A stretch of DNA of 4,849 bases from a virus (lineage: Duplodnaviria > Heunggongvirae > Uroviricota > Caudoviricetes), in IMG/VR virus record IMGVR_UViG_2645728078_000019. The stretch is one strand, 5' to 3'. Positions 3,127 through 3,396 of this stretch are shown here, in pieces. Under the pieces are notes generated by a model, which was given only the letters and a program-made list of their open reading frames with translations, had not been told where the DNA came from and ran no database searches. Both the position numbers and the translations under genes were made by a program. Numbering within the stretch: the first letter of the stretch is position 1; every line of letters starts with the position of its first letter.

Positions 3127-3396
3127 ATGAATATACTAAAAAAACTTATGCAGCGTCTGTGTGGTTGCGGAAAGCATGATGGCCGTGAACACGTGCAGTT
3201 GCTTACAGCACAACTGCGACTGGGACCGGCAGACATTCTGGAGTCAGATGAGAATGGCATTATTCCGGAGCAGGACAGGGTAATCACACAGGTGGTGATA
3301 CTGGATGCAGATAAAAAGCAGATACAGTGTGTGGTAAGACCGCTGCAAATCCTGCGTGCTGACGGGGTGTGGGAAAATATTGGCGGGATGAAGTAA
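3127..3396 (+). CDS. Small protein (89 aa) carrying a free-standing copy of the tail fibre C-terminal domain; function unknown (possible fibre accessory or assembly factor, or alternative fibre-tip cassette)
   Basis: ATG at 3127 is one nucleotide after the stf TGA (3123-3125), with GGAG-like sequence about 9 nt upstream. Residues 27-89 (LRLGPADILESDENGIIPEQDRVITQVVILDADKKQIQCVVRPLQILRADGVWENI) align by hand with Stf residues 367-424 (FRLGPASIIETNSNGWFPDTDGALITGLTFLDPKDATQVQGLFRHLQVRFGDGPWQDV) at roughly 35-40 percent identity. N-terminal 26 aa contain a CGCG motif. The in-frame ATG at 2995 lies inside stf and is not preferred. Confidence 0.6.
   Translation: MNILKKLMQRLCGCGKHDGREHVQLLTAQLRLGPADILESDENGIIPEQDRVITQVVILDADKKQIQCVVRPLQILRADGVWENIGGMK
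3245..3380. repeat. Direct repeat copy 1 (3' part of the small fibre-domain ORF)
   Basis: From GGCATTATTCCGGAGCAGGACAGGGTAATCAC (3256 onward) this matches the segment beginning at 4101; by manual alignment about 13 mismatches over about 123 bases. Confidence 0.85.

Follow-up and report, generated by a model that had tools for sequence, protein, structure and literature searches.

A small free-standing paralogue of the side-tail-fibre tip domain in Escherichia coli lambdoid prophages: a catalogued, conserved gene and candidate accessory partner of the fibre tip

The DNA analysed here is a 4849-base window (the whole stretch under study) which comes from an E. coli lambdoid prophage, where it forms the right-hand end of the tail region, and whose genes and features are listed in Table 1. 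The gene order from J to the 180-codon ORF is that of the inducible phage Lambda_2B8, and the segment 2900-4300 shares 98.7-99.9% identity with prophages in the chromosomes of numerous E. coli, EPEC E2348/69 among them. The side tail fibre, Stf, is composed of a PfN domain, an alanine-rich coiled coil of 116 residues, 111 residues of Gly-X-Y and a PfC domain; it is matched by the Pfam models PF08400 (E 2e-69), PF01391 (E 4e-18) and PF06820 (E 6.4e-36), the last being covered over its whole 64 positions by residues 363-426. In both architecture and length this fibre equals EPclA (Ghosh et al. 2012, PMC3368898).

Table 1. Genes and features of the 4849-base window
Feature	Coordinates	Strand	Basis
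J, C-terminal 359 codons, tip-attachment protein	1-1080		
lom	1148-1747		
stf, collagen-like side tail fibre, EPclA type, 437 aa	1812-3125	+	Pfam, architecture
PfC (Phage_fiber_C) tip domain of Stf, residues 363-426	2898-3089	+	BLASTP, Pfam
AGGAG Shine-Dalgarno sequence for the small ORF, within the final stf codons	3116-3120	+	sequence
TGA-C-ATG junction, stf stop / small ORF start	3123-3129	+	sequence; 79/80 Stf-selected loci
Small ORF, 89 aa, free-standing PfC-domain protein	3127-3396	+	PF06820, phrog_576
N-terminal segment of the small protein, residues 1-27	3127-3207	+	AF2 secondary structure (low confidence), pN/pS
PfC domain of the small protein, residues 28-89	3208-3393	+	Pfam; pN/pS; predicted all-beta
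A-tract / GC-stem / T-tract hairpin, intrinsic-terminator-like	3411-3440	+	folding, conservation
180-codon ORF, phrog_6585 (unknown function)	3617-4159		profile match
Remnant copy of the small ORF 3' half (nt 130-256)	4101-4227	+	repeat analysis, blastn
NleG-family type III effector gene, complete, 186 codons	4289-4849		PF06416, E 3.5e-45

Directly after stf, in the position held by tfa in lambda as had been pointed out, lies a small ORF that reads from ATG to TAA and whose product (MNILKKLMQRLCGCGKHDGREHVQLL...GGMK) was described in the original prediction as a free-standing paralogue of the Stf C-terminal domain. This was borne out by BLASTP, which aligned residues 29-88 with Stf residues 364-425 (40% identity, E 2e-13), and by the HMM search for a fibre C-terminus family that had been proposed as a check, in which residues 28-89 matched positions 1-64 of the 64 of PF06820 at 122.4 bits (E 9.6e-36) for a gathering score of 25 bits. 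The similarity of the small protein to the Stf tip is far beyond chance, and the length of 89 aa, the Cys-containing N-terminal segment and the TGA-C-ATG junction are all present as first described. Compared with the PfC domain of Stf, the small protein stands free of any collagen stalk, has its own N-terminal segment of 27 residues and is devoid of the 12-residue C-terminal tail of Stf. Over its full length it also matches phrog_576 (residues 1-89 on profile positions 1-89 of 89, E 5.9e-59). PF06820 is its sole Pfam match at E<=1, neither Caudo_TAP nor any other model being found at that level, which sets the protein apart from Tfa, as had been remarked earlier with regard to size; NCBIfam gave no match, and the PADLOC defence-system models gave nothing at E<=0.1. 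Aligned in register, the DNA of the Stf tip and that of the small ORF share 55.6% nucleotide identity (48% at third positions) with a longest shared run of 7 nt. The two paralogues are old and have both long been retained.

The family is already known: it is catalogued in Pfam, in PHROG 576 and in RefSeq, where it is named 'phage tail fiber C-terminal domain-containing protein' (e.g. WP_001023459.1), it was discussed in 2016 and it has been deletion-tested in a relative. The small ORF is a correctly spotted gene rather than a new kind of element, and the window adds no new biology in this respect.

At the junction, the stf stop codon (TGA, 3123-3125) is followed by one C (3126) and by the ATG of the small ORF (3127), AGGAG being located 6 nt before this ATG and inside stf. 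This AGGAG is a canonical ribosome-binding site, in a position suited to coupling translation of the small ORF to that of stf. TGACATG was found in 79 of the 80 loci selected on Stf (see below), and AGAACAGGAGAATGACATG, which comprises the Shine-Dalgarno sequence and the junction, accounted for 150 of the 161 junctions counted across loci. No sigma-70-like site was detected between 2900 and 3127. Expression from the stf transcript, with which the junction had been said to be compatible, is in keeping with this near-invariant arrangement.

The hairpin downstream of the small ORF begins 15 nt past its stop codon and has a minimum free energy of -21.2 kcal/mol (z -3.8), a value equalled by none of 200 shuffled sequences. 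It is present in nearly all loci, and the sequences located directly 3' of it diverge into several unrelated classes. Because the hairpin is conserved and divergence starts directly 3', the conserved unit is composed of the fibre, the small ORF and the hairpin, followed by variable cargo; the small ORF is the last gene ahead of the hairpin and the effector genes start beyond. A simple terminator scan did not list the hairpin at 3411. Its shape resembles that of a bidirectional terminator, and it marks the exact point at which otherwise near-identical prophages diverge.

Evidence for translation comes from phage phi24B. In the available part of its virion proteome supplement, at least two peptides are unique to the small-ORF homologue, 'gp59', namely VITQVVILDADKK and, at the C-terminus, ADGTWENIGGMK; in gradient-purified virions each of them had 3 PSMs, as against 2267 for the fibre gp61; gp59 is unmentioned in the main text of the preprint (doi 10.64898/2026.04.10.717836). 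As far as that part of the supplement goes, these peptides show that a close homologue of the small protein is made during lytic growth; the phi24B homologue is translated and is at most a trace component of the virion.

A UGA with C as the next base is a weak context for termination, and a run of seven A occurs at 3139-3145, two features that would suit a fused product in which Stf is extended at its C-terminus by the small protein, via programmed frameshift or stop read-through. Hypothetical gp61-gp59 fusions were indeed placed in the mass-spectrometry database of the phi24B authors under the label 'Spike or just gp59?', but a junction peptide is absent from the phi24B peptides listed in the available part of the supplement (doi 10.64898/2026.04.10.717836). 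Moreover, read-through in the stf frame would end after 17 codons, in 10 of 87 haplotypes the frame of the small ORF stays open no further than 10-16 codons upstream of its ATG, and Mondal et al. found no frameshift signal (PMC5155283). The expression of the small ORF is explained by its Shine-Dalgarno sequence and ATG, and a fusion is regarded as highly improbable.

To assess conservation, 80 IMG/VR loci were collected via the small protein and, because such sampling favours intact copies, a second set, also of 80 loci, was collected via the Stf tip alone. Seventy-eight loci of this second set had enough sequence, and 71 of them (91%) carry an intact 89-codon ORF, the seven others being disrupted by three frameshifts, three rearrangement truncations and, in one case, loss of the junction to an unrelated insertion. 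For the same set, Nei-Gojobori estimates for the small ORF gave a pS of 0.147 and a pN of 0.025, that is a pN/pS of 0.17, which breaks down into 0.32 over residues 1-27 and 0.07 over the PfC domain; the corresponding ratio of the Stf tip was 0.22, in a set that was selected on the Stf tip itself. These data indicate that the small ORF is a real gene under strong purifying selection, with constraint acting on the protein. The variants found in the Stf tip are only weakly associated with those of the small protein (mean normalised mutual information 0.07) and nothing indicates that their specificities are matched, a result obtained with little total variation and frequent recombination.

The original prediction had left room for an inert duplication, to which a decaying pseudogene may be added, and had considered that homologues might prove routinely disrupted. 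The 7 of 78 disrupted copies and the many truncated fragments found in databases would fit such a reading, but routine disruption is not what the 71 intact copies display. A pN/pS of 0.07-0.17 with a pS of about 0.15, the persistence of 91% intact copies in prophages that are often defective themselves, retention in plaque-forming phages and the phi24B peptides in the available part of the supplement all speak against it, as does the age of the two paralogues. Since both copies have long been kept and the protein encoded by the small one is under constraint, inert duplication is refuted and its remaining probability is negligible. As for the run of seven A, it occupies codons 5-7 of the small ORF (CTA AAA AAA CTT) and is taken to be a mutational hot spot for inactivation, since two frameshifted copies (L138 and L146, MNILKNL...) have lost one A.

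Another early suggestion was that of a spare receptor-binding tip. Mondal et al. similarly proposed that ORF68, the small-ORF homologue of the Stx2 phage Sp5, is perhaps an 'intragenomic reservoir sequence' for fibre variation (PMC5155283), i.e. DNA that could take the place of the Stf tip through recombination and thereby generate fibre variants. Two rare natural chimeras may be quoted in this sense: one in which the Stf collagen is joined to the small-ORF domain at a 14-nt GPA microhomology (P0062), and one of the reciprocal type in which the small-ORF N-terminus is joined to a Stf-type domain (P0182). Both are however better attributed to ordinary prophage decay, because similar deletion fusions occur to J, Lom, CII-like and portal fragments. 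With their low overall and third-position identity and no shared run beyond 7 nt, the two paralogues are no substrate for homologous exchange, and the window contains no invertase, no relevant inverted repeats and no reverse transcriptase. A mere store of sequence is also at odds with an ORF that retains a Shine-Dalgarno sequence, a start codon and an N-terminal segment of its own, that is translated and under purifying selection as a protein, and whose PfC domain is more conserved than the Stf tip it would replace. The spare tip is disfavoured on these grounds and there is only a small chance that it is correct.

The same features bear on two known arrangements in which a second copy of a fibre C-terminal region lies just downstream, as here: the diversity-generating retroelement (DGR) of Bordetella phage BPP-1 (mtd/TR) and the G segment of Mu. 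A DGR template repeat was rejected, the small ORF being an expressed gene with its own start whose identity to the Stf tip is far from near-identity, and no RT-like ORF being present in the window. An invertible or shufflon cassette was likewise rejected, the copy being direct and the window being devoid of relevant inverted repeats and of any recombinase ORF.

Of 5426 complete E. coli genomes, 737 contain matches to the segment 2900-4300, within which the small ORF lies, and the median number of matching places in these 737 is 11. The small ORF itself occurs in 296 phage records, all from Stx-converting or other E. coli phages including 933W, with copies of 86 to 98% identity (91% for ST933Wp60 of 933W). 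It follows the fibre gene in inducible or plaque-forming phages of differing tail types, such as 933W and Lambda_2B8; in 933W it is again found after a PfC-tipped fibre, within a short-tail gene set. Outside E. coli, homologues were found in E. albertii, in C. rodentium and in a few Salmonella enterica (60% identity). The Salmonella homologue has kept the free-standing architecture and the N-terminal L-x-G-C-x-K motif, and at one of the two Salmonella loci the small ORF is intact next to an upstream fibre that is apparently rearranged. At a Salmonella locus (L161), the homologue (6001-6243) is followed by an ORF (6269-7003) with an NleG-like C-terminal motif. A scan of species-representative genomes gave matches only in E. 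albertii and in a 725-nt contig assigned to Xanthomonas pisi DSM 18956 (L159, NZ_JPLE01000138.1); the latter encodes a copy of 91% identity and is most likely E. coli DNA that contaminates the Xanthomonas assembly.

Downstream of the hairpin, the cargo region of the window contains the 180-codon ORF, the remnant of the small ORF and the nleG-family gene. The 180-codon ORF matches positions 1-155 of the 156 of its phrog_6585 profile, has no match among Pfam and PADLOC models, and its resemblance to the C-terminal DNA-binding part of EvgA is non-significant (E 0.14). Its C-terminus is considered a junction artefact because its last ca. 19 codons (from 4101) cross the remnant of the small ORF in another frame; in E2348/69, RefSeq annotates pseudogene pieces in the equivalent region. 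The remnant is 88-89% identical to nt 130-256 of the small ORF, and the equivalent stretch of E2348/69 is a partial pseudogene in RefSeq. Further 3' fragments of the small ORF were seen in downstream cargo at other loci (7201-7322 and 10706-10777 in L001; 6975-7096 and 10480-10551 in L067/L069), beginning at nt 130, 153/167 or 199 of the ORF and ending at nt 251-270. In E2348/69 they lie between effector blocks, one separating the small ORF from nleA and another an integrase remnant from nleH/nleF. This pattern suggests that cargo blocks may have been added successively by recombination with one end inside the conserved small ORF. If so read, it would make the small ORF the left anchor of an exchangeable effector region. 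The conserved 3' end of the small ORF and the hairpin also delimit the zone of effector cargo exchange.

The vicinity of effector genes (nleG here; nleA, nleH, nleF and espM2 in relatives), the restriction of the family to E. coli, E. albertii, C. rodentium and few Salmonella, and the small Cys-containing N-terminus could all be invoked for a host-directed moron, the protein then serving in lysogenic conversion or being a type III secreted member of the adjacent cargo. The small ORF is however located upstream of the conserved hairpin that divides the fibre module from this cargo, is coupled to stf, lacks a separate promoter-like site, and in the Stx phage 933W lies amid tail genes, not beside effectors. 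The strongest constraint also falls on its fibre-type domain, and a moron is considered very unlikely.

Regarding the protein itself, an AF2 model of the monomer, built from an alignment of 15 sequences and of low confidence (pLDDT 60), predicts a helix at residues 3-11, disorder over residues 10-24 and six strands within residues 27-84. By sequence inspection, I3, L4, L7, M8 and L11 share one face of the helix. The N-terminal segment is composed of this predicted short helix, the conserved L-x-G-C-x-K motif and a variable linker (residues 17-26). In an alignment of six sequences (four E. coli copies, C. rodentium and Salmonella), L11, G13, C14 and K16 are invariant and the linker is missing from the Salmonella homologue. 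Within E. coli copies, C14 is replaced by Y in 10 of 72 and H22 by N in 11 of 72, which makes a fixed zinc site unlikely; a zinc knuckle of the type C-x-C-x2-H-x4-H was rejected for the variation of C14 and of the His residues. A lipoprotein of the Cor/Llp type was rejected as well: the lipobox-like L-C-G-C has no hydrophobic signal core before the Cys, which is preceded by 11-13 residues including the charged stretch ILKKLMQRL, and by only 4-6 residues in the C. rodentium homologue.

A profile search of 1.8 billion representatives returned 94 matches, essentially from the small-ORF family. Outside this narrow family, the only matches were summed over several repeats, in SprB and CarboxypepD_reg repeat proteins; they hint at a small beta-sandwich, the homology itself not being dependable. 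A metagenome-derived collagen-repeat protein of 565 aa (P0234) carries four tandem units of ca. 60 residues N-terminal to its collagen, which end in '...VVVLDAD...GILQVRRADGTWxEIPALKG' and clearly resemble the second half of the small-ORF PfC domain. PfC-like modules may thus occur as internal repeats in other collagen-like phage proteins.

Two sets of published data further constrain the role of the small protein. Ghosh et al. showed that the PfC domain of EPclA (residues 363-426), which contains little helix, trimerises autonomously, and that EPclA itself forms trimers in laboratory E. coli without a helper (PMC3368898). Among the 43 in-frame deletion mutants of Sp5 made by Mondal et al. (2016), nine lost plaque formation and lysogenisation on K-12 MG1655, including that of the fibre ORF67, and ORF68 was listed among the non-essential late genes (PMC5155283). 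Both sets of data speak against a strictly required chaperone.

The main rival to a role at the fibre is that of a free soluble knob which acts away from the virion, as a decoy or receptor blocker binding a tip-like surface ligand; it would for instance limit re-adsorption of progeny to debris and lysing cells, or condition neighbouring cells. The lack of a tail-attachment domain, strong conservation such as would be expected for a conserved ligand, and dispensability for plaque formation in the laboratory (PMC5155283) agree with this, and so does its presence only as a trace in phi24B virions, as given in the available part of the supplement (doi 10.64898/2026.04.10.717836). On the other hand, sequence inspection revealed no signal peptide or export signal, the N-terminus being without a hydrophobic core, and the authors of the phi24B study argue against binding of BamA by the PfC tip (doi 10.64898/2026.04.10.717836). 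With only 40% identity, a ligand shared with the Stf tip is not implied. We consider a decoy knob unlikely. To our knowledge, no ligand of PfC has been reported.

The reading that is tentatively favoured, at somewhat less than even confidence, is that the small protein is translated late, along with the fibre, and serves the fibre tip as an accessory partner that is dispensable on K-12. A collagen-like fibre, the small ORF and the terminator-like hairpin form the PfC-type side-tail-fibre module of lambdoid and Stx phages of the E. coli group, in which the small ORF is a late gene. The small protein is predicted to consist of a short N-terminal helix and a PfC knob, with neither the PfN tail-attachment domain nor a stalk, and its PfC-type oligomer would probably meet the Stf tip inside the infected cell. 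There it may fill the accessory slot that is Tfa's in lambda, by aiding maturation of the tip or by occupying a few of the fibre tips. It would not be a stoichiometric part of the virion but a sub-stoichiometric one, unneeded for infecting rough K-12. Such a role is the best fit because of the Tfa-like position, coupled translation and absence of a Tfa gene from the module (no Tfa-like protein is encoded in the window according to Pfam), and because the protein is homologous to the tip, is found as a trace in virions and is more conserved than the fibre tip. Given that the PfC tip is argued not to be the BamA-binding element, a tip-specific defect could be silent on K-12. Of the assembly or capping factor first proposed, the function is possible within the limits set by published data, but the term 'novel' does not hold for a family already in Pfam, PHROGs and RefSeq and discussed in 2016.

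A more specific version has the factor arise by duplication of the tip domain, replace Tfa in PfC-tipped fibres and act by homotypic contacts with the Stf tip; it is doubtful as a whole. Homotypic action could consist in templating or proof-reading trimerisation of the tip, or in capping a minority of tips with altered surface sticking as a result. We know of no characterised tail-fibre chaperone or adaptor that is a paralogue of the domain it serves. In Lambda_2B8 (L157), an 80-codon fragment annotated as 'tail fiber assembly protein' lies at 6807-7046, ca. 2.5 kb downstream of the small ORF and beside espM2. It hints that a lambda-type stf-tfa end may once have been there, before the PfC-type module was installed.

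The gene accompanies the side-tail-fibre module of Shiga-toxin and type III effector prophages in EHEC, EPEC, E. albertii and C. rodentium. Should the small protein tune tip maturation or adsorption, this would matter for the host range of phages that transduce toxin and effector genes.

Among known systems, the closest counterparts are Sp5 ORF68, 933W ST933Wp60 and phi24B 'gp59', which are also of 89 aa and share the position after a PfC-tipped collagen-like fibre as well as the junction. They do not differ materially from the small ORF; the fibre of the window is of the long-tailed EPclA type and that of the short-tailed Stx phages is of the EPclB type. With the PfC domains of EPclA and EPclB (PF06820) the small protein shares the domain family, and its predicted beta-rich nature fits published CD data. 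By its location in the late operon, where it comes directly after the side-tail-fibre gene, the small ORF resembles tfa of lambda, U of Mu and G of P2. Proteins of the Tfa type bind the distal tip of the fibre or act on it. The small protein differs from Tfa (Caudo_TAP) in being half its size and without sequence relationship to it; unlike Tfa proteins, it is also a homologue of the tip of the fibre itself.
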